A stretch of 58,819 bases of DNA, counting the filler, from Sluysia triapertura (lineage: Eukaryota): the NCBI GenBank assembly GCA_046118255.1. It is 5 parts of 5 records of this genome, joined end to end, with 100 filler letters (N's around TTAATTAATTAA, not from the genome) between each part and the next. Parts side by side here need not be neighbours in the genome. Positions count along the whole stretch, not along the records: positions 11,265 to 22,373 come from JBJNIA010188743.1; positions 22,474 to 34,370 come from JBJNIA010159599.1; positions 34,471 to 45,292 come from JBJNIA010193017.1; positions 45,393 to 58,819 come from JBJNIA010040247.1; 1 more part is not named here. One strand, written 5' to 3'. The position numbers were made by a program, and so were the translations under genes. Shown one piece after another: positions 14,819 to 55,395 of this stretch. Every line of letters begins with the position of its first letter. Position 1 is the first letter of the stretch. The notes under the pieces are model-generated. The model was not told the origin of the DNA. It saw nothing but the letters and a program-made list of their open reading frames with translations, and made no database searches.

Positions 14819-15760
14819 TTGATTGGACGTCCAATCAATTGCTGTATTAACATTACGAGTTTATATGTGATTTAAAATAAAGATATCGCTGAGAGGCACA
14901 CTAATAACCGTCATCAGTCAGCAGTTTAAAAGTTATATAGACTGAATTATAGTAGCTAACAAGAAAATTAGCTAATTGAATAAAGTAAAATAACAATAAT
15001 AATAATGTTACTATTATTATTAAAATTATAAAGTACATAAATCTTTTGCTTCTATATAACAAGATCTTTCTTTTTAGCTTCTTATTTTCTTGACATAAAT
15101 GAATAACATTGCATAAATAATATTCTCTTTTATCTATGTTGTCTTATATTTATCTAGATAAATTTTGCAACACAAGTTTCGAATCTCGTTACTCTTGGAA
15201 AGGAATTTATCAAGTAATTAACAAAGTGTGGATTATAGAAAATGTTTAGGGAAATGATTACTAGTTAAACTGTTTGAGAAATGCTATTTTGTTTGCAATG
15301 TCTAGAATTGGTTTCAGAGTATTAATGGTATTAGAGATTATAAACTTGAAATGTTTTGAATTAAATTTTGAGATGTAAATTTAATAATTTGAAATGTAAT
15401 TGTGATTCTAATGTTAAAAGATAATGAATGAAATGTTTTAAATGCATTTTTTAAATGTAAATTAGTGGTTTTAACTGAAGATACGGTATAGATCTTGAAA
15501 ACTTGTGAACGTAAGTGTTTTGAGGTATATAGATCTGGAAGAAATAGAATATGAAAAGATTTAGATGGAAAACTAGTTGAAATGTTATGGAATGTGTTGA
15601 ATTATTTTTTTAATGTTTCGATTAATTTTTTGAAGTAATGTGTGATCTAAATGCTATGTAATTTTGTCTAAAGCGTTTGAAAATAAAAAAAATTCGTGAA
15701 ATATTGTGAAGGGCGATTTTGTAAATAAAATTTGTTAAAAGTTATAGGTTTGCCACCATA
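14819..15760. repeat. Dispersed ~0.9-kb repeat, copy A, headed by a 20-bp palindrome TTGATTGGACGTCCAATCAA
   Basis: Alignable by eye with 51513-52320 and 54431-55395, e.g. ttgaaatgttttgaatt..gatgta..tgtaattgtg..taatgtta.aagataatgaa, and tatagt.gctaacaa. Confidence 0.8.
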
Positions 15761-18700
15761 TCAATTAAGTGCAAATCCTTGATTTTGGAATCGAAAACTA
15801 CGCTGGTGAAACAAGTTAGATGTGGAATTCACTCAGATAAATCAAGAATATCTAATAACTTCTATTTTTTCGATTTTGAAAAAATAATATTGAAGCAAAG
15901 CTTTATTTATGTTTAATTTTGAGTAATCTTGATCAATCTTAATATATTCAACTCTTTATTAAGCACAATAGAATTCAGGAATAAATTTTAAAAATTTCGT
16001 CAAATAAAATCATAACTTTGTCAAATCTACATTTTTAACAATTCATTGACCAATATTTTTCACTTTCTTTCTAACAATAATGTATTCACTTTGTAACAAT
16101 CCTTTAACAATATTTAATAACATGTCTCACATCTTTCTAAATCTGTAATATTGTTTTTATTTTATTTTCTTGAAAAATAAATAATATTTCCTAGGGATTT
16201 TCATGAATAGAATAACATGAAGTTTGATCTGTAACTGAGTTCTTTGGCACTCTAGCAATCGAGTTTGTTGTCTTTAAAATCTAAACCTTCTGTACCATCG
16301 CTATATCATTTTTACCTTGGTATTATCAAAGCTCCTAACTTCATGAATAATTCTACTGGAACAAAACAAATATTACATTTTTTAATCTTCATTTTAAAAA
16401 AATTCAAATAATTTAGCAATCGAAAGTTCATAAAAAATATAGAATTAAATACTAATGTTATAATAGGTTGATTATTGGTTTCATATGAAAATAAATGATA
16501 TATTTATTTATTTACATTTCTAAAAACGACATTACACCTTGAAATAATAATTAATTATTTATTTTTTGATTAGAAAAGCAATACTCGCTAGTTTTTTAAT
16601 TTTTAAGTATTAAAAATTAATTATTAATTATTAATTTTTTAAATTATTTTGTTACTTTGAATATATAATTATGAGATATTAAAATTATTATAGTTTTAAG
16701 TCTTTATTGTTTTTAAAATAAGCTAAAAAACGGTAATAATTTCGTTGTTAAAGTTTGTTTAATTTAATTCAAATGGATTATTATCAAGGTTCTGTAAGTG
16801 ACTTCAAACACTAACAAAAATACGCTTAATGATCATTTAATAATTTTTGTTTTCTACAACAATAAACAATAATTTAACATCGATAATATAAATAAATAGA
16901 ATTGGTTATAATATAAGTTAGTCTTCCGAATTTTTTATTTCAACATCTCAAAACAACTTTTAATCTAAATTAAAAAGTTTAGAGTAATTTTACAACTTTA
17001 AAAATTCACGAATTAGTTTAATAAATTAATTAAGAATACAAAATTGAATTTCACGAGCTGTCAAAATTAGTCCATATTTAATTCACTATATGTAATATCT
17101 TTCAAATAAGTTCCATAAGGAATAATATATTGCAAGTAATAATAAGCTTTCCAAATAAAATCGGTGTCGTTGTATATCATATTAAGGTTCTTAAGAGCAT
17201 ACAAAATAATTTACTATTAATCTTATTCAGAATGACTTATTCAGTATGAATTCTTCTATCAAGTCAGGATATAAAATTAAATTTTTATTAAAAATAAAAA
17301 TTAATGTGTATTTTTAAGAAAGAGTGACTTTAACAATTAATCAAGGCCCACCGAAACAGTTCTAAATCTAGTCATGTATCTTGGACAAAATAAATGAATT
17401 TAAAAGGATTTGTTAAGTTTTATCCATTAGATAAATAATTAACCACAAATGTTATACAGATTGCGTCCAGTAAACAATGAAAAGTGCTAAAAAATAAAAT
17501 TATTTCTATATTAACGTCTCTAAATTTTTTCTAGCAGCATAGAATAAATGTTGTTTTATTTATATATGAATACATTTCAAATTATATCCTGATTTATTTT
17601 GTCTTACTTCGGAATGTAATAAATAATTTATTGTTTTCAATTAACTCCGATAATCATAAACCTTTTTCAATTTATAATTTACTTATCTTTTCTCAAAACA
17701 ATTAATATAAAACAAGTAAAACAAGAAAATAATTTTCTTTAAATATTATATAATAAATAGTTAAATTTAAATTTAAATATAATAAATTTAGAATAACTTA
17801 CTTAATTTTTTCTTCTCCATCCCCGAATATTTAATAAATACATCATGTATGTAATATTTTATAAACTTTTGTTTTAATTTAAGAAATAAATCTAATTACA
17901 AAACAAGATATAACGTCCGTTTTGAAATTTATGTATTTTACATATACTCAGTACCATATTATTTTTGTATTTTTTACTACAACTCTACTAGTACTATAAC
18001 TACATTTTTTTACTATATTTTTTAAATGATTTAAAAATTCAATTAATTAAATTTATTCTACAATTTATGTAATTAATTACTTTATATTTTAATAATTGTA
18101 ATAAATTTAGTTTAAAATTAAAAATAGTTTAAAATTAATTTAATTTAACTTTCTTTTTTGCTTAGAGCATTTTATTTTTTTATTATTTTTCAGCTATATT
18201 GTTGTCTTTGTTAAGGTTTTGGAAATAATTTGATTTTGTTTAAGATTAAATTTTAAATAATTTTTTTAGTTTAAAAGTTTTATTTTATTTTGATTTAATC
18301 TTAATTTCTAATATATTTTATTCATTTCCGAATTCCTTTAAATAATGTAATTATATATTTGCGAAATTCGGTGACATTTATTTCAGCATTATATATTCGT
18401 TTGACTTCATAATATTAACCTTGCCATTATATCTCCAAATTCAATTATCATTGGTCACAAGCCTACCAAAAGGCTTATTCGAGATATAGTCTCACCAATT
18501 ATTAAATTTTATAAAATTAACTGATTCGAATTGCCGACCTCTTGACATGCAGCCACATGATTAATCCTTTAAGAAGTTATCAGCATTATTTAATAATTTG
18601 TTTTTATTACATTAAATTGTACTTTAATTTTTAAATAGCATTTTTATCCTATTCAATTTCCTACAGAATTTAATATATAATCAAAAAATAAATCAAATTT

Positions 18701-21489
18701 TCTACATAATTATTTTCCATGTAATACTTAGTAAATAACTGAAAACTATAATTATTATATATTTTCTGTTAACGTTTACATTTGCAATATTATGTAGACT
18801 GATTGTTATATATTTTTATTAAAACATAAAACCAAAATTTACTAAGAAAAACTACAATTAGTATATTAAAGGTTTTTTTAATAATTTTGTGAATTGCATT
18901 AAAGGTATTAGTAATTTTTTAGGCAATGATTAATAAACGAGTACATGTAATTCATAATAGCGTTTAAATTCATATTTAACATTTATGTTCAGGTTTTAAA
19001 TTATTTAAAAATCGATCTCACCGATATAAAGAACATTACGCATAATTATAAAATAACAACTCTTTCATTTGTATTCAAACAACATAAATAACACTTTATT
19101 TATGTAAAAGACTAACAAATCACGATTAAAAAATAGTGGTTCGGGATAACAGATATCCTGACTCTGCTCTTTGCGTAACTAACAAACATAATAAGCCTTT
19201 CTGGCATTAGTAATAACTTTTGGTGGACGAATGCCCACTTTTCTTAATCCATTAATGGTTTTATACATTTCAAAATTAAATTCGTTAACTTTTTGTCGAG
19301 ATTTCATCATCTATGGTAAAACGCTTATTGAATTCAATGAGCTTTATGAATACAATTTTTGAAACATTATGAATTGTATTACAAAATGAACATATGGTGA
19401 TCTTAAAAAACTTTCTTAACTTCAAACGAGCCAAATTAATGTCAATTAAATTAACAAAAGTCTTTATTGACAATATCTAACTTTACTTTCTTTTCGACAT
19501 TTTCTAACTTCTGCTTTTCAACAACATAAAACTAATAAAGATTTATTTTATCGTATATTTGCACAACAAAAAGAATGCTGTTATTCATAAAACTATTAAT
19601 TTTTAAATTTCATTATTGTGCTGTAAGGCACCAATATTAAAATAACGTAAAATATAATTTATGTATTTCAAACTATAATAATTAATATATTTCATTAAAT
19701 AAAATATATAATTTTTTGTTCTTTATATATTTATTATTTTTCTCATACATATAAAATATATTATAATCTAATTTTCATCTGTGAAATAATTCGAAATTCA
19801 AAATTCCAATAAAGTAATAAAACGTTCATTAAGACGTTGAAACAATGTCAAATCGAACACTAGTGTGCTTCTTTTAGGCCTCATAAGCGTAAAATTTCTA
19901 TTAATATCAAAATATTTTGTATCATTTTCCAGTTATATTATTGTAATATAAAAATTATATAAACTATTGCTTATTGACTATAATTTCAAAGCATTAGCGT
20001 CTTGTATCAGCACTTCACATTCTTTGTTATTCTGATTATGACTAGTTTCATTGATTCATCATTTTTTATATTATCTTTCTCGATGTTCCTTAAAGGGAAT
20101 CAACCAGGTGTACAGTAATTGGTGGGTCAGAAACACATTCTTTATAATAAGGTTCTATATTACATTCGGCACTATTTTGGTGATTCCAATTGTCTGACTA
20201 GAATCTGGGTTTTCTGAAGCTTCCCTGACAGTAGTTCCTATCCTTCTAAGTTAGAACTAACTTGTTGCCTATTATTACAGTTCGAATCTCTATTGATTCC
20301 AATTCAGTTTCTTTGGCTGAAACATTTGTAAACTCTATTTCTTCATTTAATCTATTCACATTCATCTTCATTAGCTTCTCAATCATTCTTTGTAAAAAAA
20401 TTTATCATCGTATCTAATGTCTCTTGCAGTATTAAATAAAAGACGTTTCAGAATCAACAAATTATGTCCTGATGTTATGTTATCTTTAAATACATCACAA
20501 TCAATTTCCTTTTGAATAATCTTAAAAAATACACAATTCTGCCATAAAAAACTTGAACTATATTAATAGTATTGATAAAGGTTTGAGTTATTTATTAGAT
20601 ATATTTTATGAATTATATTAGATGTTTTGCGGGTAAATATATAAGATTAAGAAAGTAATGTAAAAGTTATGTAGATGTAGATGTTTGGTATGTTTGATGT
20701 ACGTTTAAAATCATAAATTAACATTACATAATTTATTCGGTATAATCAAATGTAAAAAGTAGATGAAATACTCTGTGAATTGTCTAATAATATTAAAATA
20801 TGTTTCTAAATAATAAAACGCAAATGTTTAATTATCTTCATGATTAATTAATTAGTCGGTTTAACTATTTTGAAGACATGATTGTAACAAATTTTATTAG
20901 GATCATTTATATTATAATAAATAAAGTATCAGAATCATTATTTAACATTTCTATTTGCAAGAACAAATATTTATAATTTGAATATTTTTCATATATATTA
21001 ACACTAAACGTGATGGTATGAATAGGTGTACATCTAACCTTGATACATTTAGTGTTAATCTACAATAACTCTATTATGTTTAGTTTGTAATTTATTCCGT
21101 TACATTATTACATTATGTAAATTAAAATCTTAGTCTGAGTAAAAAAGACTGAATAAATAAATAGTATTTATGTAAATCTTTTACTGATAATATTAATTCA
21201 TATAAAAATATGTCATTTGAGCAAAATTGCACCAATATAATATTGAACACATCTTATACAAAATCTTAGATGTGTGACTTATGTTGAAACAAAAACTGGA
21301 CAATCTTAAAAGTACCATAACGAAAGAAAATTAGCAAAAACATATACGAAAACAAACATTTTTCAATGACTGACACAGAAATATTGAATATGAAATATTT
21401 CATTCTCAAACTGTCAAGATTCTTATGAATACCGATCTTCTTTAGAGGATCATGACTATTTTATAAGTTTGGTAATAACATCATGCTAA

Positions 21490-21790
21490 TGAATTAATCA
21501 AAAATTTATTTTTGTTGGTAGTTCGGTGATGATGTTTTGGCACATTGCTTCAAAAACATAGACTCAAATTTACTATCTGCAGATATTACAAAAGAATTAA
21601 AGAAGCAAATATTAAACATATTGAATATCACTTCATAAGTTAAGACATGGCTTTATAATTATGCATCGGAAAGTATTTGAAAATCACAAGTAATAAATAA
21701 CCATTGTTGTCTTTTATTAAATGCACAATGAAAAAACCACAATTTCGGTAATTTATTTGTATGCGTTTTGTTTTACAACTTATACAAGAA
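21490..21790 (+). pseudogene. Possible guanylate-kinase (MAGUK GK-like) remnant
   Basis: Fragments IFVGSS, RIKEANIKHIEYHFIS and HCCLLLNAQ occur in GK order. Heavily broken. Confidence 0.25.
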
Positions 21791-22315
21791 AATTGATATT
21801 ACAATTCGAAAATCTAAAAATGGAAAAGAATAAAATAAAATAAAATTGAACCTTCCTGACGTAATAGCCAGAAGAAAAAACTGCGGATTGACAAGAACAT
21901 CGTAGAAATATAAAATATGTAATATTAATAAAATCGAAATGAAATACACAAAATACAAATTAGCAAAACGGATTTAAAGAAATTATGTGGTCGAAGTTAC
22001 ATTATAGAATGAAATTAAATATTATATAGAAGAAATTGGAATTAAATTATAGCAAATATTTATTTATAAAGTAAAATTAACTATAAAGAAAAATTATTAT
22101 AGAAAAAAATTTTTAAAAATATTAGTCAAAATATTACCGTTTAAGATTACGGCATGAAAAAGATAAATGAATTGATTGTTTTACAAGTTACATGACTATT
22201 TATAAATTATTCGACAGCAATTTTTAAAAGCTTATGAAATCAGAAATTTTTAAATACTGTTACACATTGTTTTGGTAAATTGTAAATTTTTAGTTATTGA
22301 TTTTAATAAATTCAA

Positions 22316-22358
<43 letters not shown>

Positions 22359-23638
22359 ATTATTATTATAATTNNNNNNNNNNNNNNNNNNNNNNNNNNN
22401 NNNNNNNNNNNNNNNNNTTAATTAATTAANNNNNNNNNNNNNNNNNNNNNNNNNNNNNNNNNNNNNNNNNNNNCAACTTGTGGAGAGCTTGCAAACCTTT
22501 TATAGCCACAAACATAAATATATAAGTGTAACTTTGAAAAAAGGGGTACAAACTTTATTTCCTCCAACAAATAATTTATTGATAGGTACTACTTCTGACT
22601 CTAGAAAACTACATTGCTTACACTGATGAGAGATATTACAGATAGACTGAGTTAGAGTCAAATTGTTCAATATTACATGATCCCGTTATCTCTCAGACTT
22701 AGAAATAGAATCTAAGTAATCGTCAGCAATGAATAATCAGCCTTTGAAAATTTACAGAAAATTATGTGACCCGTTTTTTAGTATTTTCATACTTTCATCT
22801 ATTTGTGTGATTCGTGCTTTGTGCAAATAAGAAAAAGGATATCGAGTCTTGTTGCATTCCCATTGCCAATCACATGAGTATACTCGTGTTTGATTTTCAT
22901 ACATGTAAATGATTATTTATGACAAAATATGTGTGTATTTATCTTGAAATAATAAAACATAGATAAACAATAACACTCAAAACTGAAATGGCATAGCGAA
23001 TAACTTCATACAATTTAGACTTAGCAACGAATGAGTTACTAACGGTTTTATTTTACTTAATTTAATGTGGAATTTGATTATACAAACAATTTAATATATA
23101 AAAGTATATTTAATTTCAATTTTCTGTGCCTTCTACACTTTTACGTTAACTTTACCTTATTATAACTCAATAATTAAACAAATCTGAAATATCGATATAT
23201 TCTTTAAAATATCACAATTATACCATGAAAATTATTTTATAAACTAATAAAATATAAAATAAAATACCTTCATAAAATTATACAATTATTAATAAATTAC
23301 TACCAGGGGTAACACAACTGAAATAAGGCCCGTATTAACTAAAATATAATGAATAAAAATAAGTTACTAACCCTTTCCTTTAAAACCCTTACATGTTTAT
23401 TTTAGTTGATTACTAAAGAATAAGCTTCAATTTTACGGTTATCCACGTATGAATTGAAACAGCGTCCCTAAAGCTGAAAAGCTTTCGTTATCTTTATTGT
23501 TTTTCTCTTGTTAATTTGTTTCTAATCTTCTGCAAAAGCATAACTACTTATATAGCAATTTTAGGATAATTTGGGAAATTGAAAGAGTCAATTCTTTTTA
23601 GTTGGTAATAAGCTGACAGATTTTAATTTTTATCATCA

Positions 23639-23688
23639 CCCAATCAGAGTGCAGATAATTCTCAATATTTTTAAACACTCTGATTGGG
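23639..23688. promoter_or_regulatory. 13-bp perfect inverted repeat carrying two opposed CCAAT boxes
   Basis: CCCAATCAGAGTG-N24-CACTCTGATTGGG, about 140 bp upstream of the ATG at 23826. Confidence 0.55.
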
Positions 23689-23825
23689 CAGTAAAAAGAG
23701 AGAAAGATTTCAGACAGCGAACAATTAGAAATTACTTTTTCAAAAAAATATTCAGACTCAATTAAAAAACCAGACAGTTAAAAATTCAGACAAAAACATT
23801 AAATTTCAATTCTCGAAGGTTAAAA

Positions 23826-25138
23826 TGCATGATGATTTTATTACACAATGTATTAACACCGATGTAAAATTAATGCTGTTTTCAACGTATGTCTCAACTG
23901 GTGTTTTATATCATTCTATGATGATAATCGAAACGAGATAAAAAGATAAAGAATTTTCTTTGATATTACGAACTAGTGATAGTGTAAAGATTGTTAATGA
24001 TTATACTATGATGTTGAGAACTGAAGATTTTAAAGCGTACAGTTTGTTCTTATTAAAGATGTTATCTGAAGAAATAAACAATCTAATATTATCTTTAAAT
24101 AAAGTCATTAATAGCTACAAGATGGATGATTTGTATTCATTTGTGTTTAAATCAACTCTCAATATTAATATAAACTGTTGGAATCTAATTGAACTAAAAC
24201 GTGAATTCTTAAATTCCCTAGTATCAGAAAAATGGGCCCACCTTCCAAAATCGTTATGGTCTAATAATTACAATCATGGTAAATATGTTATGATTCCATT
24301 TAGTGCTAGTTATGAAGATAATTTTATATCACCCAGAATGCATGTTAATAATCGTTTTTTAGTTTTAGCGTATTATCATGAAAGAAATGGGTCTAGTTTA
24401 ATTCGATGTAGTCAATATTCAAACGTGACATTAAAAATGAGTTTCATTGATCCGATAACTAAACTATTGCGACATCAATATGAATTTATGAAATTAAGAA
24501 TAACAACCGCTCTAATTAAAACTCCAATATTAGAGAGTAAACCATTCAAGAACAATGATTGCGTAATTGATATAGTGAGAAATATGCAGACAGACCTTCG
24601 CAAGTTAGTTGAGGTCGAAGATGATGACCACTACATTAATGTATCCAATCAGAATATATGTCGATATTTATTACGAGTAGCCTCCAGTAACTGGCACGTC
24701 CGAATACTAAACCTAATTCTAGTTAGTCAAATTTTAGTTCAATCGATTTTGAGTCATCCTGGTATGACCTACGTATTGATGAGTGAAACAAGATATGATT
24801 ACGAACTGATTTTGTCAAGTATTGTACAATTAATTTCACTACCAGATACTACAACTACACAACGAAGTCATCAATATATCTTGTCATTACGGAAAGACAC
24901 AGGTACAGTCGCAAACAATTTTTATGAATATTTATGTAATTTCAATTCTGTTAGTTTTAAATTGATTTGTTTGTCTAATTACTTTTTAGTTATTCAAAGA
25001 AATTACTGGATGGTGAAATACTGGCGAGTAGGATATGAAGATCGTTATGATGCAGTTGTTGATAATTTTCAAATTTTTCAAACTAGGGAAATAAAATTTT
25101 ATGTTCAAAAATTTTATTTGTTTAATAATAAATCTTAA
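23826..25138 (+). CDS. Myotubularin-related pseudophosphatase (inactive MTMR-like); may be a pseudogene
   Basis: NNRFLVLAYYHERNGSSLIRCSQ ~ RNRIPVLSY.H.NGA.L.RCSQP. SSNWHVRILNLI. YVLMSETRYDYELILSSIVQLISLP replaces HCSDGWDRT..SLAQLLLDP, so there is no CX5R. Frameshift between ATG 23826 and the 392-aa ORF; downstream conserved blocks look deleted. Confidence 0.75.
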
Positions 25139-25776
25139 TAAGAGAATTTTAATCCTAATCCATCAATTCTATGTTAAAATTTTTTTCACGAATATAACGA
25201 CGAAGTATATTATAAAGATTAACTTTAAATATAGATTCAAGACATATTATTATTTGAGCAATTCTAAATATTATTATAAAATTCATGAGGAAACTAAAAC
25301 TGTGACAACAGTAAAATTAAATAAAGCGATGAATATGTCTTACGACCAAACACTAAACCTTAGGGTAGAGATTTATCTAATAAATTTATCAGACACGTTC
25401 ATATATTTTAAGATATTACTCAGTCTTATCTTTCGTAATAAAGTTAATAATACGTCCTCAAATCCAGCTTATACCTTGAAAATAAATATTAAGTTTAGAA
25501 ATTAATTTTCAAAACTTCTTTTAAAACATTACTCGTCACATTTCAAACACATAACTACCATAATTGAATTGTAATCATTTATTATAATAAAATTTTGTTT
25601 AATATTATAATTTCATTTTTGAATTGTATCTATTGTCTTAATTCGAGTTTACTATAAAGTTCCTAATAGATAAACGCATATTTTTTAACGTTAACCAACT
25701 TAATTAATTATAAATTAATAAAAAATCCCTACAAGATAATAGTAAAAGAATTACCATAATAAAGTAAAGTATTTTA

Positions 25777-25950
25777 TTCAAAAATCTTTTTAGATCTAAT
25801 TTAAATTCACTAAATTATTTAATCTCGCGGAAACAGAATAAATAATTATCTTATGACCTCAATTATTTCCAATTTTCTTAACGCTGACACCTATGCATCG
25901 GCCCTTAAGTGCGTAAGCCCGATGTCATAGAGGACTCTCGTATATAAACA
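25777..25950. repeat. Dispersed ~180-bp repeat with GC-richer hairpin core (copy 1)
   Basis: ctgacacctatgcatcggcccttaagtgcgtaagcccgatgtcatagaggactc versus ctgacatctgtgcatcggcccttaagtgtgcaaggccggcgtcatagaagactc at 32481. Confidence 0.85.
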
Positions 25951-26941
25951 CATAAATAAAAATAAAATAAAATTAAAAGTTTTATAAACCAAATTCTCAC
26001 AATATTTTACAAATTGTAATCAATACATATCTTTCAATTAATTTTTTGTACAAAAGCGCTTTTTTGCTACTATTTTATTAGGCAAAAATTCTAATCTGTG
26101 ATAATTTTTTATTATTAATTTTTCCTTTGCTTAATTACTCCGCTTGCTCAGCCAATTTACTTTCTATATTACTCACTATAAATATTTAAATACACATAGT
26201 TTGTTATTATTATACTACTACCATTACTATTAATTACACACATCGGTTTTTATTACATAAACACTTACCATAATGGAATTTTTAAAACAATACTTATTTT
26301 AAATTTTAATTTAATTATATATATTTCCAATTATTTATTCCAATTATATTCCAATTATTTACAATATTATTATATTTTATATTATTTTAGTTTACTTGAC
26401 CCAGACACACATTTTGCTTGTATTTATACTCATGTATTTGTTGTGCCGTATGTATAGATACCATCTATATCAATGGAATAAAACGATAAGGAACATTAAT
26501 AATACAGCAAAAACAACGACAGTGACACCGTGACAGAAATAACAATAATTTTATTATTTATTTTGTTTATGTGTGAAAGCTTATGAAGTGTATGAAGTAT
26601 ATAAAAAATGGAAATATAGAAATGAGCTTTGTTGCTGTTATTATTTTGAATTTTGGTTGTTTATATGTGTGGTGTTCAACACTTATCAAACTCCTTTCTT
26701 TCTCATCGCATACACACACGTACATACTCACATATTAATAACTTCCTACGGAATGATGAAAAATTTAAAAGCACTGCCTGTTAAAACTGTTACAACCAAA
26801 CCAAGTTTGAATTTTTTAGATGAGTCTCCTACAGATAGGATAAATCCTGTAGGGAGAAGTGATGGTGTTGTCTTATGGTGTTATGTTATGGTGCCGTTTT
26901 ACTATAAGTCAAATAGCTGTAATTTTAGAGATGTAGTTATT

Positions 26942-30349: not shown

Positions 30350-31714
30350 GTTTCTATTCAAAACATAAAATTTAAAAATTTGGGTATTTAATAATTTCTT
30401 CGTGTCTTCAGTGCCCTTGATCATCCACGTTTGGTTATCTAAAAAGGAAATAGAAATCAAATTGTTTTCAGTGTAATAATAAAAGAAAATTACTTTGTTA
30501 TAACCATTATAATTAACGTTTTCATATATTTTCGAAATTGTTTCAATATAATTCAGCAAGTTCGTAAGTCTAAACAAGTGATCCATGCAAGAAAAGCGTT
30601 CGGCTCCTTGATTCACTAGTTGATTGACCGTATGTGCATATAAACAATTGGTTCCGAATTTCATACACTCACCATTTAGGACACTATTATATGGGTAAAA
30701 TGCCATATTAATCCTTTATTGGAATATTTATGAAACATTGAGTTGCTAGGAAACGATGGAATATATATTATATTCTTGGATATAAGACAATGACAATTAG
30801 AAGTAATAGTATCATGACAAAGAAAGCATTTTAGAATCTTCTTTACGTTTTCCTTTTTATTCAGTATATAATTCAGATATATTTATTAGTAGAAGTTTGT
30901 CTGAAATTAAATTCAAGCCCGTATTCATTGATCTTGTTATAAACATTTGGATGATATCTGTGTTTAGAAGGTTATCCTCTTTAAATCGTATATCGGCCAT
31001 AAGCATTCTTTTACCAGTAACAGAATAACCGTAAACTATACAAAAAATCATTGGTGCGAGCTCTACACTTGCTTCCATTCGGAAACTCGACATTCCTTGG
31101 ATCATCTCAAATTCATCTTTATAATTTTCAAATAGTTCTGCACTAATCGACATCGTAATTTCATGAAAGGCTTACTCTTTTACATCTTCATTTAATCTTG
31201 TCACTTTTATATTCAAACGACATTGAAAAAATATAATGATAGAGTTGTCCGTGATTAATCTCATTCTATTTCCGGAACTGATGATGAGAATTTGCGAATT
31301 ACAAACTTTACTTTTCGTGACTTCGAATATATTTTCATAGGAATGTGTAGGAGTAATGGTTTGTTATATTTTGATTAGCAATTCTTTTTGAAAAATTAAG
31401 ATCGCACATAGAATGGAGGACAAACAAATAAATATTAAAAATGTTGATCTCATCAATTTTTTCTGGAATACAATTGGATGAGCTTTTTCGTCGTCATGAT
31501 TATAATGTTCTTGATCATTGTTACATGTATTTAATAAAATGCTTTTATTTAGTGGAGTGGTAATTTCCAACTCAGTTGTAGAAGTCATTGTATTCATGTT
31601 CATAGGTCCGATTGTTCGAGAAGTATGGTCAATAGTTGATACTCGTTTTACGAAACGTTTGTCTATTATTAAATCTAAATAATCTGTTGTCTTTACTTTG
31701 TGATAAAAATGCAT
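30350..31714 (-). pseudogene. Type-II membrane protein with SEA-like domain, interrupted
   Basis: TM FLIFICLSSILCAILIF, then FQCRLNI..SAELFENYKDEFE..LAPMIFCIVYGYS..MLMADIRFKE, resembling an SEA module. In-frame stops split it into three ORFs. Confidence 0.4.
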
Positions 31715-32133: not shown

Positions 32134-32171
<38 letters not shown>

Positions 32172-32357
32172 GTTGTTGTTGTTATTATTATTATAAATAC
32201 ATAAATTCTTTGAAATCTTACACGAACTTTCTTTATTTCTTTTATTTCTGGACATATGACACACTTAACCGACTAAATAATATAATTTTAATTTTAATAA
32301 AAAAATAATCGAGTGTATAATAAAAGTTAATTTTTTATAATAACTAATTTAAATTTG

Positions 32358-32540
32358 ATTCAAAAGATCTTTTTAGATCGCATTCAAATTATTTGAAAAT
32401 ATAATCTCGCTAATATTAGCAGACATACATAATTGAAAGCATTACCTTTTGACTTCCACTACTTTCCATTCTCCTTAATGCTGACATCTGTGCATCGGCC
32501 CTTAAGTGTGCAAGGCCGGCGTCATAGAAGACTCATAAAC
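32358..32540. repeat. Dispersed hairpin-core repeat (copy 2)
   Basis: Homologous to 25777-25950, including ttcaaaa.atctttttagatc and taatctcgc. Confidence 0.85.
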
Positions 32541-39652: not shown

Positions 39653-40643
39653 ATTTTTGATGATATACAAACACAATTTATATTATAACAAATTAACAAT
39701 ACAATTTAATAAATAAAACACGAAAAAAATATTACTTATTTATAGTTTCCAATTTTAGTACATTTAATTATTATTATATTGCATTTAGTTAAATAAATTT
39801 TGTTTCAAAAGTATAATAAGACACATTATGCAAACTTTTTATTTAAGAGACTATACAACGTATTGTACAAAATTAGTATTTTATTGATGTTCCTGAGTTT
39901 TAAATGCCTCTTCTACACACCTTTTCCCGATCATCCAATATTTCATGTTTTAACTCAGGAAAATGGAAAGATTGCAAGTATTTCCAAAAAGTTAAGCAGA
40001 TCAAGACATGCGAAAAATACAACATTGTCTACAACTCGCATAATGCCAATCTTAGCGCTAAACTGCAGTAAAGCAACAGTATGGAGAATATTAAAAAATA
40101 GTGGTGAGGTCGAATTCATTAAAATGCTCACTAAACCTCCACTTACTGATGCTCAATATAGCAAGAATTAACTTTGCCGAAAATCATATTAATAACCACA
40201 CTGACTGACCAAGATAATATTCTCAGATGAGAAGAAATTTAATTTGGACGGTCCTGATGGTTATAAATATTACTGGCATTATCTAATGGATTCAAAAGAA
40301 ATATTTTCTACTAGAATTTGTAATAGAGGATCAGTTAGGGTATGTGATGCCATAGTTCCGTTTGTCAAACTTCAAGAAAATATCAATGTCATCTTTCAGC
40401 AGGATAACGCTCCTTGTCATCGATCTAAAACTACACTTAATAAGTTCAGTGAAGATGGATACTTTTGAAACGAAATTTATTTAACTAAATACAATATAGT
40501 AATGAAAAGGGTACTAAAATTGGAAACTATAAATAAGTAATGTTAGTTTATTCGTGTTTTATTTATTAAATAGTAGTGTTATAATATAAATGGTATTTGT
40601 GTTATAATATGAAATATGTTTGTTTCATATGTCATCGAAAAAA
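39653..40643 (+). mobile_element. Tc3/Tc1-like DNA transposon, internally deleted, with ~160-180-bp TIRs
   Basis: [47 protein letters not shown]. 39653-39814 is the reverse complement of 40459-40643, e.g. ttacttatttatagtttccaatttt versus aaaattggaaactataaataagtaa. Confidence 0.92.
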
Positions 40644-45208: not shown

Positions 45209-45280
45209 ATATTGGTAGCTCAGTGGTAGAGCATTCGAACTGCGCAGCGATGGTCCCGGGTTCGATCCCCGGTCAGTCCA
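45209..45280 (+). tRNA. tRNA-Ala(TGC)-like pseudogene or SINE head
   Basis: Intact A box/D arm TAGCTCAGTGGTAGAGC and T arm CCGGGTTCGATCCCCGG; TGC at the anticodon position; TTTT terminator. The anticodon stem and first two acceptor pairs do not pair. Confidence 0.6.
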
Positions 45281-45873
45281 TTTTACGAAGTCNNNNNNNN
45301 NNNNNNNNNNNNNNNNNNNNNNNNNNNNNNNNNNNNTTAATTAATTAANNNNNNNNNNNNNNNNNNNNNNNNNNNNNNNNNNNNNNNNNNNNGGACTTCC
45401 GTAATGTAAGCATTTGTAAATTATTGTCATAATTTTAAATTCTATTCTTGCTTTTATTGGCAACCAATGCAATTCTTTGAGATAGGGTGTTATATGAGAT
45501 CTTCTTCCAACTTGGAGGATTAGTCTTGCTGCTTGATAAATTATAAGACTGGAAATAATGTTTAAGTAATGTTTAAATAAATAATATTGAAATACAATGT
45601 AATAATGTGTGCTATAAATTATATTATTTTATCAAAAATAAATCTTCAAGAAAAAATTGAACAGGAATCACTTATACATTTATTGTTTAAATAAGTACAT
45701 ATATATTTATATAATAATTTTTATTTTTTCTTTTCATTTATATTGTATAAAAATAAATTGTTTGCAATTCAAAAATAATTCATAATTTAGTACGTCATTT
45801 GTTCTATTGTTTATTTCAAAATTTATTTTAAACTAATTCACAATTAATAAGTTTTCAATTAATTAGCCATATT

Positions 45874-47190: not shown

Positions 47191-47984
47191 TCTTTAAACA
47201 AATTAAAGTTTGGTAATTTAAACATTAAATTGTTTAGCTTTATTTATTGGTATTGGCTTGTAGTATGCAACTTATTATAAAATAAACTTGTTAATATTTA
47301 TTGAGGTCGTTTGTATTATAAGTTGCCAAGAATTATCTCGTAAGTAGAAGTTTGTGTTTGTGTCGCTTGGCAACGAACGTGTTAATCAAAAGCCTTCAAA
47401 ATTAATTAAGTTTAATTCAAAATGGAAAGTTAAAAAATATTAATTAAGTTGTTGGATAGAAATTATGATGATGGACTGATTTCGCCAAATAATATAGGAT
47501 GTCTTAAGTTTAATAATATTGTGATATCACGAGGACTTCTAATTGTATTACTTTTAGACTTGTGTTTATTCATACTTTTATCATTAATTATTTTGCTGTA
47601 TTGCTTATAATTACAAAAAAATAAGCAAAGACAATGTATTTTCATAAACGTTCTAATAAAACATTTACAATATTTGGATCACTGAGCACAAGAAATGTTT
47701 CAATTTAATGATACCTTTCTCTACTTACGCAAAAGAAGGAAATAATGTTTTACGAATAATACGTTCATTATTAACCATTTTGAGATATATCGAAAACAAT
47801 TTTTGAAAATAAATTATCAATTCATCTATGCTTCTATTTACAAAATTTAATGTTAATGCATGAACTACCAAGAGAAACATCACCGAACCGAAGTACGTTC
47901 TGGTGCTTTAGTGATCACATTCATCTGATAAATAATCATCAATATTTGGAGAAACACATTCTGAACTCAATAAATTAAGAGTAA

Positions 47985-48203
47985 ATATTGATTAAATCTT
48001 TAACTATATCTACATAACCACAGTGGCAGACCCAATGAATAAAAAATAATCCTTCAAACGATTCCAAGCTTCCCATTTGAGTTTTGCTTCAATCGTTGCT
48101 TGATTAAAGTATCCAAAAAAATTTAATGTTCTGCATTTAAAGAACCAACAATTCTGGGTAAAACCTGAACAGCTTTATCAAATAGTTCATCATTTTCAAA
48201 ATC
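47985..48203 (-). pseudogene. ACBD6: ACBD6-like (acyl-CoA-binding + ankyrin) pseudogene with internal deletions
   Basis: ELFDKAVQVLP..FFGYFNQATI/EAKLKWEAWNRLK (ACBP), joined to FIHWVCHCGYVDIVKDLI (ankyrin LLHWACDRGH). Confidence 0.7.
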
Positions 48204-48482
48204 TTACATCTTTCTTTAAATTAATTTGCAAAATGTCTTTAGACAAAAATGGGCAGCCAAATCAGATAAGTAATTTACCAAAAGTATTTGATAGGAATAC
48301 ATTTAGTGATTCTCAAATAACAACTTATCGATTATCTGGTAATGAAACCATAATAAAATATTTTGGTCTAGTTAATCAAGTGATAAATTGATTTTTTACG
48401 CACTTTGTCAAAATTTTGAGTTTTTCTTGTAGAACATTAGATACAAATCTTTTTGATGATAATACCCAAATTATATGAGGTA

Positions 48483-48648
48483 TCGTATTTTCTTCTGTAT
48501 TATCCGCACTTAATGTATAGCCCGCATTATAAAAATCAACTTTTTTCTTTAGGATCAGTAAAATAAATTTCTAAACTATTGATGTATAACCCGCACCACA
48601 AAACACTTTTCAGTGTATAGCCCGCAGACTATAGGTAAGAAAATACAG
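48483..48648. mobile_element. Tc2/pogo-like MITE with TA target duplication
   Basis: TA|tcgtattttctt ... aagaaaatacag|TA, with internal repeats tgtata(g/a)cccgca x3. Confidence 0.7.
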
Positions 48649-48949
48649 TACATACGTTAAAGGAGCTTGTATACCCAAGAAAATAGTTATGCATTAATAA
48701 TAATTAACATTTTTGTTTGACAACACTATCTTCTGTTGGAATCGGTCGATCAGATAGAAGGTAAAATGTACTTTCCATTCAGCATATATATTGAATTTTT
48801 TCAGTCCAGTGTCTAGAATAATGATCATACTGATCTTCCAAAATAATTAAATTAATATTAATAATTATTGATAATTTGATTGATTCACAACATCTAATGG
48901 AAATTGAAACTGAGAAATTCGAAAAAGGTGATTTCAACATAACAAAGAA

Positions 48950-49265
48950 CATGCTTTTTAGTTTCCATATGTTGATCCGACGACAAAGGTACGGGACGAT
49001 TTTCTTATTCCCGATCTCATACACGATATCCGCTGCCTGCAAATGATGTAACAGGATGATGAATTACTTCAGCACACTATCTGAGCAGAATTGAAAATAT
49101 CTTCAGTATCCATACTTTTTTTCTCTTGTTGGCCACCTCTTTATTCAGATCCACCAACAAAAGTCTGTTCACTAGTTTCGAAATCAATGTAACAATGTTG
49201 ATATAGTGTTGTATATGTCAGGTACGTTTTTACATGTGTTTGTGAAATGATATAAACTAATCATG
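48950..49265 (-). pseudogene. NSFL1C: NSFL1C (p47)/UBXN2B-like pseudogene fragment
   Basis: QTFVGGSE*RGGQQ..EDIFNSAQ..AEV..TSFAGSGYRV ~ QRFYAGGSERSGQQ..DDLFKGAK..FAGGGYRLG. Confidence 0.7.
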
Positions 49266-49419
49266 GGAGAGATGTTGAGCTATCACAGATGGTTTTTTAA
49301 TTTATTAAATATTTAAACTAATATTTAACTCTCCTTCGTTGTCATACAAATTTAATTTTTTTAACAAATAAAGAAAATTAAATTAAATATGCTATGTACA
49401 TTAAGAAAACTTATTTGAG

Positions 49420-49640
49420 AAATCTCATCCGATACATTTTCTCCAACAGCGTTCTAAATCGAAAATCCATGTTTGAAAAAAGACCGATTCTACTCTAAGA
49501 ATATTTATCTATGAAAGCGAAATGCTTCACAAGATATTCTTTAACTGTCTGAAAAGATGAAAATTCGATGGTGCCAAGTCTGTACTGGCCTTTAATAAGG
49601 AAAAAAGCAAGATTTGGACTAAGCTGAATGTGGAATTTGC
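49420..49640 (-). mobile_element. mariner (DD34D) transposase C-terminal remnant
   Basis: STDLAPSNFHLFRQLKNIL and FFKHG..LERCWRKCI ~ SPDLAPSDFHLF..RW.KCI. Confidence 0.75.
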
Positions 49641-50189
49641 ATTATTTTGCTTAAGTTAATTTAAGTACATTTGGTTTGAAGGCATTTTTGCTATCATTTT
49701 ACTGTGGCTTGTTTGGTTAAAATTAACCTGAGTTAAATTAAATTTTATTTTAACTTTATAAATTAAATTAACAATGTTTGCTTTAAAAATTTCATCGTTT
49801 ATTATTTTATTCATTAAAAATATAAAATACCAAGACTTAAATTTATTGTAAATCAAATTAAAGGTGTGACGTAAACTAAAATTTATTAATTTTATAAGAA
49901 TGTTAATTACACCACTCACGTCGTGGATGTTCTTGTAGGATTCTCCCTTAATAATAAATAAAAATAAAAAATATCTGTCAATGTAAGATAAGTATTTAAA
50001 ATTACTTCGAGTCTTGAATTGTTTAACCGATTATCAGATTCAATATTGCTCGTAGTTCCAGTGAAAGTTTGATTGGTCCACAATCCATGATCAGGTGCGT
50101 TATTTTGTACTGACATGAGTAGATCACTCAATCGACTTAAATGTCTGTTACAAAATTGATTTTTTGATCAGAGATAAATTGATTCGAAG

Positions 50190-51295
50190 ATGTCATGGAA
50201 ATAACGGCAATGTACACCAAATTTGAGACATATGCTGGCTTCGTTTAACTGATATGGGCACTGAATTGGTATTTTGTGCACACAAGAAATTCCACTTGAA
50301 TTTTGTATAGAAGATTCAAATTGCTTGATCTGGTCGAGCAGATTGGACATACTTTGTTTAATTTTGTAAACATTATAGTTGATCATATATAATCAAAGAT
50401 GGATCAACATGTATAGATTTTATTGAATTTTTGATATGAATCTAATTCAATTTTATATTTCTTCAGAATTAAACAACACAATACATCAGATTCAGATTCT
50501 TCATTTAACAAATATTTTACCTCATGGAATAAATTTGGCCTGTTGTAGTGAACTCGAAGAACAGCTGTTTCAGTTGATAGAAACAAAATTTCTTTTACAT
50601 CTTGAATGACTTTATCTGACGCAGTTGCAATTAAACCCATCACTAACATACCACACAAATGTTGTTTAATAATATGTAAACTTTTATAATCCGATCTAAG
50701 ATCATGAACCAATTGACAACAACAATTAACTTCATCTATAACAAATCGACCCAATCGATCATCGGTGTTTGCTTTCGCGAGTGCTTTCATAAAATTTTTT
50801 CTCTGCAACTTTCTGGAGTTACAAAGATAAGTTTATATTGTGGTTGTTCAATGGAATTTTGTAAGGCTTTATAAACTTCGGTTAGAATTTTTGTTGCACA
50901 ACTTGAGTCTAAAACTATACATGTAATCTCAAAACTTTCTGAATTACGAATTTGATCTTGCATTAATGATATAAGTGATAATACGACAATTGTGACTTTT
51001 CTATCATTTGTGGGCTTTATTAAAGTACAGTCATTCCCATGGAGAATTGCACTCATAATATTTAACTGCATAGGTCCTAAACTTGATAGTTTAAAATGAT
51101 TTCTGTTAACTTATCTTTCCATTTTGTCCCATCACAACTTTGAGTACATTTAGATCGTTTAGGCTTATCTTTAATAGGAACAAGCTTTAACTTCTCATTA
51201 TTAAGGATTTCAATATGACTTTTGATGTTAACGATTTGATCTTGCAATCTTTTAATTTCATTGTGAATTTCAATAAATCTTTGTTGACTATTCAT
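50190..51295 (-). pseudogene. RECQL: RecQ1 (RECQL) helicase pseudogene
   Basis: N-terminal coiled coil; degenerate motif I (KPTNDRK, then a deletion); LISLMQDQ; KLIFVTPE; IDEVNCCCQLVHDLRSDY ~ DEVHCCSQWGHDFRPDY; GLIATAS; YNRPNLFHEV. Stops and frameshifts. Confidence 0.92.
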
Positions 51296-51512
51296 TTAAT
51301 AATTATGTTATTATATAATTAAAGACAACTGTTTTTAATTTTTTATTAAACATTTCATCAAATCTATTATATTTTATTAACTGACAATTTTGTTTAGTTG
51401 ATTTTTACTAATTTTTTGTTGTAATTCGTTCAGTTAAAATCAAAATTAGATTATTATTTTTGCGAATCAAAACGCGCGCAATTCCACTATCTTTATGCAG
51501 CAACTCACGAAT

Positions 51513-52320
51513 GATTGGACGTCCAATACCAATCATTAATTGGGCGTCCAATACCAATCATTAATTGGGCGTCCAATCAGGCTATACCAAATATGATCTG
51601 AATAGTGTCTCATCGGTAGACAGCAAGCATGAAATATTGAATTGGCTTTAATTGATCTGTCTACTGATGACATATAATGAATGAAGTTTGGTTGTTAGGC
51701 CAGTTAAAATACTGGTGACCAAATTAAAATAAATGATTACATAATAAAAATGCGAAAGCGAAATAATTAGATAAAATAAAATAATATTATTATTAAAATT
51801 AGTCAAAACCAAATGCACAAACTTTGTCTTTCTTTTTCTTACATGATCTTCCTTTTGTAAAATCTTTTTTCTGAACATATTTTCTGAAATATTAATAAAT
51901 TTAATAAAAAATATAAATGTGGCTAAAGATGTTAGAGAAATTGATGAATGGATATAATTGAGGAGGTTAAAGAATTTTCATTTTAATGCAGTGTTTTAGA
52001 GTTGAATTAAAGATGAAATTTTAAAGTTTTTTAAAGATATAAAAGTTGCAAATGTTGAAGGATTGTGACTTTGAAATGTTTCAAATTAATTTTGAAATGT
52101 ATATTTGGTACTTTGAGATGTAAAATTTGATTCTAGTGTTGTGAAATTATGTGTTAAAAATGTTTTAATGATATATGAAATGTACATTTAATGGTTTGAA
52201 TGTAAGATGTGATTTTGGTGTTGTAAAATTGTAAATTTAAAATGTTTTGAATTGAGCATAGTTTTAATAGATCTTAAGAAAAAAAGGTATAGAAAAAGGT
52301 TTTGATACTTTTTAAAAAGG
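51513..52320. repeat. Dispersed CCAAT-palindrome repeat, copy B, head locally triplicated with 25-bp period
   Basis: attggacgtccaat, then (gtccaataccaatcattaattgggc)x2 and gtccaatcag. Body aligns with 54690-55150. Confidence 0.8.
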
Positions 52321-52399
52321 TAAATGAACAATGTAAAAATATGATTTGAATAGCTATTTGAATCTCAAGTTATGGGTTAAAAAATTCTGGATACTGATA

Positions 52400-52640
52400 A
52401 ATCACAATAGCTTCAACTTTTTATTTCATTACAATGAAGGTCAGAGTTGACAGACTCTTCATCAGGAATCAATTCGAAGTGAATTATACTTCAAATTCTA
52501 CGAAATGCAAATCAAGAGAGTTTTTCAAATATACCTTTTTAAACTTCGGGTTGACCAATCTAGCCTTTACCTAACCATTCATTTTTAGTTCCTTTGTTAC
52601 GATAATACCTCATTGCGTCATTGGGATATTGCATTTTCTC
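52400..52640 (-). mobile_element. mariner transposase central remnant
   Basis: YYRNKGTKNEWLGKG..IIHFELIPDEESVNSDLHCNEI ~ YYDN..RK.W..GE..GIIHFELLP.G.TVNSD.YC.QL. Confidence 0.7.
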
Positions 52641-53327
52641 AGATTTTCATTCAGTTTAAATTGTAATTCCTTGCGATACTTATTAGTGCCTCCTAACAAT
52701 TTCAAACTTCGATATTGATTCGATCGAGAAATTTAAGCTCATTTGATATTGTTTAAACACCTTGAATTAGGTTGATTCTCGACTAAACATTCTTCATTTG
52801 TTCGCGTAAATATTCATAAATATATAATCCAAGGTTTGTTTTCCTTTCTCAATGTTAAATTTGTTATATAAAGTGGGACAGTGAAAACACAGTTAAAAAT
52901 AGATAATGTTTTATTTTAATTTTTATTGTAAAAGGATTATTCGGTATTTTATATAAAATGTTTGTTTAACAGATAAATGTATATTTTGATATTTTTGCAG
53001 ATAAAAAATAAAAATGAAGGTCAACAACGAAATGAAACTGATATGAGTAAATTAGATTGGAACGATTATTACGATCGAAGTGGTATTGAAGATATTTTAA
53101 CCTCAATGCACCAAGTTTCATTAGAAGGGTATAATTATTTAATAATTTTACAAGTTCATTATTTTTAGGAACCGTTCAATCAATGGCCGAAATAATGTAA
53201 TTTTCTATTTTCTAAATTGGATTATTAAAAATATTTAAAATAAAATATTTTATACTGTATAAGATTTAATTTTTTTGTTTAAAATTTTAAGAAATGAAAT
53301 GAATATTGAAATTTTAAAAATTATTAA

Positions 53328-53556
53328 CCCCTTCTCGGTTTATTTATTTTTCAAGTGTATGGTCGAAAACTGGCTATTTTTTTATTAACAAAAAAACAAA
53401 ATTAGTGTATAAAGATATTTCCGACGTCGTTTTATAAATATTACGAAGATTACACTTATTTTTCGTCTGATTGTTTTGGTGCCGTATATATAGGGCATTT
53501 TATGCTCTGGTCAGTTTTAGTTATGCCGTAAATATACAGCATGAACAGGGAAGGGG
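53328..53556. mobile_element. piggyBac-derived MITE
   Basis: TTAA|CCCCTTC ... GAAGGGG|TTAA, TIR match about 13/16; subterminal palindromes gccgtatatatagggc and atgccgtaaatatacagcat. Confidence 0.8.
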
Positions 53557-53624
53557 TTAATGAAATAAAATTAATTTTTTGCAAAATTCAAAATAAATCA
53601 AATTACTTTATGCAATTGTAAATT

Positions 53625-54310
53625 CTAATTACATTTATCTTCCTGTAATTGTTCATACAACTTCTTATCATACCTATTTTTATTGACTGATTTATCCGTT
53701 GATTGATCGAATGAGTTTTTTTGTTTCTGTTTCATTGAAGGAATGCTTGCTCACAGAAGAGTAAGATACAATCTAAACTAAAATCCATTTAACTGGTACA
53801 AAATAAAACTTTATAATTAATAAACATAGAAAGCACATAATTTTCAATAATAATTATTAATAATAATATGATAATTATAATAAAACAAATTTCCAAAAAT
53901 AGGCAATGCTTTTAGTTCACTTTCTGAACATTGACAATATCTCGTGTTCAATGATGAAATTAAATAATATACAAGAATACAATCAATTTCAGTTGAGTGA
54001 GTACTCTTTAAATTATAAGTTATAATCTTGAATAGATAATTTTTATGATGATCATTATTGATATCAATTTTTGTTTGTATCAAATTCGTTGCATCTTTTA
54101 ACAAAGGGAAATAACAGTTTCTCTTAATAATACGTTAGATTCATCTTCCAAATTATTATCTTTTACTTGCTCAATATTGACAGAACAGACAACATAACCA
54201 ATTTCAAGATTACTTTTTTTAGCAAAGTTGAATACTAAGTTTATATCAAAATATCTAAATAACATATGCTAAAAAACTAAATGTATTTTCTAAATTCATT
54301 ATTGGACATC
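53625..54310 (-). pseudogene. Unidentified interrupted coding-like sequence
   Basis: Consecutive frameshifted ORF pieces (MLFRYFDINLVFNF.., ORF 53844-54104, a charged tail). No family recognised. Confidence 0.3.
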
Positions 54311-54430
54311 AATGATCAGAAGAATTATATTTAAACGAATAATGTTACTTTAAGTATCAAATTGTTTTTGTCTCGTAATATTAAATTTATAATAATGTAC
54401 GGTTTTATTTTCAATTTTCTAGTGTCAATA

Positions 54431-54634
54431 TTGATTGGACGTCCACGGTTGTGTTTACAATTAGTAATAAAATGTAATGATTGGACGTCCAATCAGAACA
54501 GTTACATCTTTTGCTTTAAAATGTTGATGAACTCACACTGTCATCTGTTTAGAAACTGTCAGCTGATGACAGGTTATAGTGGCTAACAACAAAGTTTAGT
54601 AGTAGTAATAATATTGATAAAATTAATTTTAATA

Positions 54635-54667
<33 letters not shown>

Positions 54668-55395
54668 TACAATGAAAATAATGCATAACTTTTCCCTTTG
54701 TTTTGTTTACATACACTTTCTTTTATACAACTTTATTTCTCAACTTATTTTCTATAATATTAATAAATTGATAAAAGGTATTGATGAAACTAAAGATGTG
54801 AGAGGGATTAATGAATGAATGTAGTTGTGGAAGCTAAAGAATTTTCACTTTTAAAGCAGTATTTAGAGTTGATACTGGAATGAAATTTTAAAGTTTTTCA
54901 AAGATATAAATGTTGTAAATGTTGAAAGATTGTAAATTTGAAATGTTTTGAATTGCTTTTAAGATGTGCATTTGATAGTTTAAGATGTAATTGTGCTTTT
55001 AATGTTACAAGATAATGAAAAAAATGTTTTAGCCGAATTTTTAAATGTAGATTGATGGTTTTGACTCAAGATAAAGTTTGGATGTTGAAAGCTTGTGACT
55101 TTAAAGTGTTTTGAGGTACGAAAATGGTTTTAGTGAATTTGAAAAAAATAAAATATAAAAGGTTTTAATAGAAAAATAGGTAGTGTCATGGAATGTGGTT
55201 TTATATGCTATATGTTAGATTAAATTTGCAATGTTTTGAATTAATTTTTTAGGTACATGTTTGATGATTTTGGATGTTATGAAATTTTGTGTTTAGAATG
55301 TTTGAAGGTATTAAGAATTGTAAAATGTTCTAAAGGATTATTTTTTTGTGTCGTGATGAAATAAAATTTTTAAAGTAATGGGTTGACCACCACAT
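54431..55395. repeat. Dispersed CCAAT-palindrome repeat, copy C
   Basis: 18-bp palindrome TGATTGGACGTCCAATCA at 54478-54495, partial second copy at 54431. Ends gggttgaccaccacata, like ggtttgccaccata near 15748. Confidence 0.8.

Follow-up and report, generated by a model that had tools for sequence, protein, structure and literature searches.

The repeat and its copies

Three dispersed, homologous copies of a degraded and uncatalogued repeat of about 950 bases lie in the window analysed here, a stretch of 58,819 nucleotides of Sluysia triapertura DNA (GenBank assembly GCA_046118255.1) made of five parts of five records joined end to end with filler letters between them. The window has a G+C content of about 26%, includes 616 N and shows no depletion of CpG; it holds pieces of short-intron eukaryotic genes and transposon relics (integrase, Tc3-type helix-turn-helix, myotubularin, WW, BCNT, RPS4). 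The copies are referred to as A, B and C, and a further region upstream of the RPS4 relic as D (Table 1). All copy counts given below apply within these 58.8 kb.

Alignment scores were judged against the maxima of composition-matched shuffles, and nhmmer was also used. The initial annotation had described three homologous copies in the same orientation, and alignments, shuffles and nhmmer all bore this out. Copies A and C are colinear from end to end, from the palindrome to a common end motif, with 639 of 1027 alignment columns matching (62%), and B and C match in 466 of 665 columns (70%) over positions 51657-52307 of B. In a self-comparison of the window, identity reached 74% across 550 bp for B-C, 70% across 476 bp for A-C and 73% across 183 bp for A-B. 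Body scores for pairs of the three copies ranged from 170 to 360 against shuffle maxima of 72-87, and nhmmer returned E-values of 1e-25 to 1e-44 for pairs that include copy C and just 0.001-0.025 for A-B. Among the heads, the excess over shuffles is clear for A-C (53 vs a maximum of 36) and marginal for B-C (36 vs 31), while A-B does not exceed them (33 vs 49); beyond the palindrome, the head of B is barely homologous. The middle third of copy A is weakly like the others (A-B 70 vs a maximum of 56; A-C 55 vs 66).

A weak fourth copy had been proposed upstream of RPS4, and this proposal failed: nhmmer found no match for region D in either direction, and its scores against the copies fell below the shuffle maxima in three of three pairs (50-65 vs 63-79). 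Region D has only a G-over-C skew and the right-end motif in common with the repeat, the motif having been located by a post-hoc regular expression that hits three sites, at the ends of A, C and D. Since stretches with a seemingly C/A-rich sense strand also lie upstream of other gene-like frames (20570-20750 and 25950-26500), region D may represent a general upstream composition and not a further copy. No match was found to the repeat among phages or plasmids, nor to a 23-nt pattern of the head in prokaryotic genomes, results of little weight as these collections do not include eukaryotes.

Table 1. Coordinates of the repeat copies, their parts and the adjoining gene relics, numbered along the whole window.
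Feature	Position	Strand	Basis or remark
Copy A, both ends present	14811-15758	+	colinear with copy C
Copy B, head diverged, right end incomplete	51512-~52378	+	right end approximate, positioned by eye from a short motif
Copy C, both ends present	54423-55394	+	nhmmer and alignment
Region D, G-skewed, similar end motif	58010-58240	+	homology tests negative; motif only
Perfect 20-bp palindrome of copy A	14819-14838	.	longest perfect palindrome in the window
25-bp tandem of palindrome unit, 2.6 copies, head of copy B	51514-51577	+	Tandem Repeats Finder, 97% matches
Two palindromes in head of copy C, 46 bp apart	54431-54495	.	outer (54431) imperfect; inner perfect, 18 bp (54478-54495)
(TAA)n microsatellite of copy C, between head and body	54606-54682	+	
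Decayed ~81-bp tandem units, copy A	15330-15700	+	autocorrelation peaks 67 and 81, internal alignments
82-bp tandem, 1.9 copies, body of copy B	52093-52248	+	
Right-end block of copy A, conserved, ends CCA	15722-15758	+	14/18 match to end of C
Relic adjoining copy A	13216-14766	-	coding-like minus segment in composition model
RECQ1 pseudogene adjoining copy B	50452-51295	-	PDB E 9e-18, tblastn
Broken reading frames left of copy C	53700-54309	-	86% A+T stretch at 53793-53893
RPS4 pseudogene	57521-57912	-	Pfam E 4e-10, PDB E 4e-16

Architecture of the repeat

On the plus strand, copies A and C follow one order: a T-run of 4-5 nt precedes a left end that starts with TGTC, and the palindrome or palindromes, a loosely kept core of about 120 bp and a (TAA)n tract come next, followed by a spacer rich in A+T, decayed repeat units about 81 bp long and a right block whose last bases are CCA. 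At the equivalent place, A (~14990-15030) and B (~51775-51800) retain shorter relics of (TAA)n. Nowhere in the window is the G-over-C skew higher than in the bodies of the three copies; for example, the plus strand of copy A between 15330 and 15760 carries 81 G and 21 C, about four times as much G as C.

Copies A and C begin with TG and finish with CA, the boundary being uncertain by a few bases, and the inverted repeat between the element ends is 3 bp at most. The end of C is the best non-self site for the right-end block of A, tied with one unrelated site at 486. In both copies an AATAAA, a word present in 15% of 50-bp stretches, lies 30-35 bp before the right end. Left flanks are unrelated (3/3 pairs within shuffle range), as are right flanks in five of six pairs; the A-B right flanks exceed shuffles (61 vs 44), an excess that fades on longer flanks (67 vs 66). 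The initial annotation had called for a common 3′ terminus or a target-site duplication (TSD). The former exists as a right-end motif common to A and C, but no TSD was found up to 4 bp from either boundary in the two complete copies, under a relaxed rule by which 77% of random site pairs match.

The repeat is non-coding. Spacings between mismatches show no preference modulo 3 (286/279/272 and 128/121/119), and 28 of the 31 alignment gaps have lengths not divisible by 3, so that a protein-coding or intron-split gene family was rejected. Pfam was scanned with 187 stop-free open reading frames (ORFs) of at least 52 amino acids without N, plus one RPS4 piece, and the ORFs of this size within the module had no convincing match. 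A structured RNA or tRNA-like end was likewise discarded, as no Rfam family was matched, ARAGORN made no call and the folds were ordinary (z of -0.15 for the body and +0.8 to +1.0 for the ends); Rfam gave two below-threshold microRNA matches in 51300-58400, one of them merely the head hairpin of copy C, and none around A. Other candidates that were tried and rejected include an array of Pumilio sites (one canonical site in four bodies), a right end derived from the head motif by decay (13/18, in C alone, a score equalled by five unrelated sites), a minus-strand primer-binding site at that end (no common long terminal repeat, LTR, lies past it), and relics of partner ORFs in the right flanks (no mutual tblastx match among the best 40, and Pfam matches only at E 0.025-0.055).

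The palindromic head

Perfect palindromes of 20, 14 and 18 bp stand near the left ends of A, B and C. An exact 14-mer occurs three times in the window (14822, 51514 and 54480), always in a head and against an expectation of 1e-4, and in the three-way alignment the palindrome exceeds every other invariant run in length (14 columns vs 11). Being confined to the heads, the 14-mer does not behave as a promoter word that occurs independently of the body, one of the outcomes that the initial annotation had named as its refutation, and the palindrome is supported as an integral part of a mobile repeat. That it heads every copy is correct insofar as all heads have the exact 14-mer; however, in C this lies 57 bp inside the element, behind an imperfect outer palindrome, and in B the unit is tandemly repeated. 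A text search of the papers at hand did not find the 14-mer as a literal string. A single palindrome arm also occurs outside the repeat, at 9420, and is followed up to 9950 by the most C-over-G-skewed stretch of the plus strand, a layout of arm and skew opposite to that of the repeat; 9420-9950 has no homology to the repeat.

The head had been interpreted as a double CCAAT site for NF-Y. CCAATCA is enriched in the window, with 20 occurrences vs 4.8 expected, 11 of them outside the heads, and the centres of the two boxes inside the palindrome are separated by 9 bp. Human NF-Y data contain no double CCAAT boxes less than 19 bp apart, and spacings peak at 19, 24-27, 36 and 43 bp (PMC4889920). If this rule carries over to the present species, as assumed here, the 9-bp spacing excludes double occupancy of the palindrome. 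The interpretation fares better between units, where the same-strand boxes 25 bp apart in the B tandem, and the 46-bp spacing of the C pair, lie at or near spacings favoured in those data. Judged by its sequence, the head is a candidate site for a single NF-Y trimer, whose binding is possible, as is promoter activity of the heads; none of them has a consensus TATA. Another CCAAT arrangement, unrelated to the repeat and again near a gene start, was seen at 23639-23688, where perfect 13-bp inverted arms containing CCAAT, 24 bp apart, stand about 140 bp upstream of a myotubularin-like frame and form a fold that beats 200 of 200 shuffles.

Adjacent gene relics and placement

The link of the repeat to pseudogenes, and the identities given to the neighbours in the initial annotation, were partly confirmed: RECQ1 and RPS4 were verified and are disabled, VPS39 was not, and the left neighbour of copy C has no Pfam match and was not called coding-like by a composition model. 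The RECQ1 relic was delimited by tblastn with 14 of 150 hits as queries. Its 5′ end is intact, and homology runs from about residue 13 to about residue 303 of a 617-aa relative and then stops; the closest relative is only 45% identical. It has lost 13 codons at the Walker A motif and carries two frameshifts, one of which is not removable by a single GT-AG intron, and its ~840 bp show no intron-like stretch. The RPS4 relic (~390 bp, start at 57912) has a stop at a conserved Trp and frameshifts, one without an intron solution, and runs into a microsatellite, again with no intron-like stretch; upstream of it there is no demonstrable repeat or repeat head. Both relics are 5′-intact and 3′-truncated, although truncated-looking fragments, namely the WW-domain and BCNT pieces, also occur without the repeat. 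Homologue searches did not find the parental genes of the relics, and no second element end, inverted or direct, lies beyond any relic within the window. About 100 bp past the point where RECQ1 homology ends, a CCCH-finger frame (50105-50257, minus strand) begins that is paralogous to another at 30542-30694 on the same strand (tblastx 31% over 51 aa, weak Pfam zf-CCCH_UNK matches).

The neighbour of copy A may be VPS39-like in its motifs, a likeness that sequence searches did not confirm. It has a candidate GT-AG intron of 43 nt (14732-14690, 81% A+T) whose removal would link the main frame to an ATG lying 53 bp from the palindrome. As a control, the WW-domain gene has an intron of 34 nt (82% A+T), one of five solutions there; since GT-AG joins arise easily by chance, with up to 19 solutions at one junction, 14732-14690 is kept as a candidate only. 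The neighbour of copy C also has an intron-like stretch. Intron sizes of small parasitic animals are treated in PMC6543705, and the short introns and base composition of the window might suit an orthonectid-like animal. Just past the relics left of A, an imperfect GGTTC...GAACC palindrome recurs as three short, separated repeats at 11785-11910.

The nearest plausible ATG lies 53 bp (A), 218 bp (B) and 122 bp (C) from the palindrome. A composition hidden Markov model (HMM), for which 18 ORFs distant from the modules served as training set, yielded 17-29 coding-like segments, 15 of 22 being on the minus strand at the middle setting. In A and in B a minus-strand segment ends at the head, and left of C the model has none; because the segments ran into these heads, they were read directly. 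For 5-8% of random positions, and for 8-14% of non-coding ones, a minus-strand 5′ end lies no more than about 250 bp to the left. Head-to-head adjacency of at least two of the three copies therefore has p = 0.007-0.053, or 1e-4 to 3e-3 if copy C is counted. The preference for gene starts that had been proposed thus finds a modest excess in its favour; with three copies, a crude model and a pattern recognised post hoc, this is a hint of preference, unproven, and a bias toward gene starts is possible. The window gives no indication that the element brought these genes with it or activated them.

Nature of the element

The repeat may be best described as an old, non-autonomous, non-coding family of mobile DNA that comes closest to the DINE-1/HINE partners of Helentrons, a reading to which we assign a probability of roughly one half. 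DINE-1/HINE elements have a left flank composed of a subterminal inverted repeat (subTIR), a complementary repeat and a microsatellite, then a variable segment of 10-500 bp, a tandem array and a right flank of 60 bp (PMC2374699; PMC7492417); they lack TSDs and prefer T-rich sites (PMC4067079). The present repeat follows this order of modules, as in Cg_HINE of the oyster (PMC7492417) and DINE-1 (PMC2374699), with a microsatellite, a variable spacer, central tandem repeats and a short conserved right block (PMC2374699; PMC4067079; PMC7492417). Like these elements, including HINE-Mo of a mite, it is dispersed with defined ends, non-coding, about 1 kb long, unlike at its two ends, hairpinned at the left and without TSD; its hairpin might be read as a 5′ subTIR plus a complementary inverted repeat. 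From the module order and the missing TSD we infer a non-autonomous rolling-circle element. Helentron families less than 70% identical may retain near-identical terminal motifs (PMC4067079), and a doubled left terminus, as in copy C, is reported for one Xenopus family (PMC11417382).

Under a HINE-like origin, the palindrome would be the terminal hairpin recognised by a rolling-circle transposase provided in trans, and this would account both for its invariance against a drift to 62-74% elsewhere and for its local repetition in B and C. The copies would have landed or survived where relics are dense, in the T-rich gaps that immediately precede genes, and the hairpin end would for that reason face gene starts; the neighbouring genes would have decayed through deletions of their own and would not have been carried by the element. 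Several observations weigh against such an origin. A 3′ subTIR is matched at 9 of 11 positions in C only, which 5% of random 130-bp stretches equal, and at 6 of 11 in the likewise old A and B; a 3′ hairpin of at least 5 bp is missing from C, and the 5-bp stems of A and B stand against a random background of 50%; neither an 11-15-bp subTIR pair nor a 3′ stem-loop like those of DINE-1/HINE is clearly recognisable. The right ends of A and C are not followed by a T-run, and none directly precedes the palindrome of B. The microsatellite is (TAA)n, common throughout the window, whereas that of DINE-1/HINE is of GTCY type. Unlike those families, the copies are only 62-74% identical and no partner transposase is seen in the window, its 187 ORFs including no autonomous partner and no RepHel match. 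The TG...CA ends of A and C, moreover, fit an LTR. If the HINE-like reading is true, the repeat adds another uncatalogued, non-autonomous element to those of a little-studied, A+T-rich eukaryote and is of use for annotating repeats; if strict head-to-head targeting held genome-wide, the element could supply promoters or give rise to partial duplicates of genes in a compact genome.

Because of the TG...CA ends, the main rival is a solo LTR of an LTR retrotransposon with the CCAAT boxes in its U3, which we consider unlikely. Its length of about 950 bp, CCAAT near the left end and AATAAA near the right are those of CCAAT-bearing solo LTRs, and the window does hold a Gypsy-type integrase relic. 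The repeat, however, has no match to that relic, no internal retroelement adjoins any copy, the inverted repeat of the ends is minimal and AATAAA is a frequent word here. The missing TSD also counts against a solo LTR, as a true TSD of 4-6 bp would be expected, given this divergence, to differ at no more than one base in 42-82% of cases and neither complete copy has one. The 9-bp spacing of the boxes further differs from the 19-bp LTR class of PMC4889920. Far less credible is a Pack-type transposon with terminal inverted repeats, or an LTR-mediated retrocopy, holding host cDNA between two element ends, and the suggestion in the initial annotation that the element carries host cDNAs was not supported. 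Pack-type elements have element sequence on both sides of the captured gene. LTR-mediated retroposition typically yields partial, chimeric copies flanked on both sides by element sequence (PMC5131818), and the partial, apparently intronless relics of RECQ1 and RPS4 and the marginal likeness of the A-B right flanks would agree with such copying. Yet the repeat stands on one side only and no second end lies on the far side of any relic; A-C homology goes no further than the CCA motif, past which no LTR is shared, and the neighbours of A and C have an intron candidate and an intron-like stretch, respectively.

A minus-strand rolling-circle element with the hairpin at its 3′ end, which bypassed that end and copied the 5′ part of the downstream gene elsewhere, is also distinctly unlikely; it is the gene capture of the initial annotation transferred to the DNA level. 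Such an element would need no second copy of the end, and it fits the 5′-intact, 3′-truncated state of RECQ1 and RPS4 (seemingly also of the relic we take to be VPS39-like), the minus-strand majority of coding-like segments, the adjacency of two of the three heads to gene starts, and a CTAG just outside the outer hairpin of copy C. A terminal palindrome, the lack of TSD and a setting amid gene fragments of one orientation are likewise reminiscent of canonical or gene-capturing Helitrons. Canonical Helitron (HLE1) ends are a TC start and a CTRR end at a site between A and T (PMC11417382), but one of three copies has the CTAG, the next minus-strand base there being A instead of T, and neither A nor C has a TC start at the other end. 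No new terminus is common to the sequences beyond the relics, the RPS4 relic has no repeat upstream, and the WW-domain and BCNT fragments look truncated without one. An extended version, in which the hairpin doubles as a CCAAT promoter and the element both inserts head to head at gene starts and transduces the 5′ halves of genes, appears very unlikely; if true, one small family would build a graveyard of 5′-intact, 3′-truncated housekeeping copies in a compact animal genome. Equally hard to favour is a paralogous, plus-strand non-coding transcription unit, domesticated or never mobile, that shares a CCAAT promoter head to head with its neighbour. The strand asymmetry of the three bodies is typical of a transcribed strand, CCAATCA is enriched, the palindrome is better kept than its flanks, and the B boxes are spaced as favoured in the human NF-Y data. 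The spacing within the palindrome excludes double occupancy by the same data, however, and there is no RNA family, stable fold or consensus TATA; as the sole confirmed adjoining neighbour, RECQ1, is dead, selection for its promoter is hard to argue.

Other features of the window

A second repeat of two copies, about 70% identical, was found at 25691-25937 and 32265-32534, with a G+C-rich, hairpin-like block near its right end. The broken Gypsy-type retroelement extends over ~570-4500 on the plus strand, with integrase matches in three frames, and includes a weak match to a viral fusion protein at 1621-1914 (E 0.003). A Tc1/Tc3-type relic at 39667-40600 has terminal inverted repeats 83% alike over 151 bp, and a minus-strand relic at ~48500-49700 is putatively mariner-like. 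An identical 12-bp palindrome with stops in all frames recurs inside the N gaps at 11209, 22418, 34415 and 45337 and is an assembly spacer, not biology. Between two N gaps, a tRNA-like sequence at 45209-45280 on the plus strand (Rfam 31.7 bits; no call by ARAGORN) is possibly the head of a short interspersed element. The myotubularin-like frame, at 23825-25137 on the plus strand, has an in-frame stop near 23939; a single intron, for which there are three solutions, could remove this stop, and the frame may therefore be alive.

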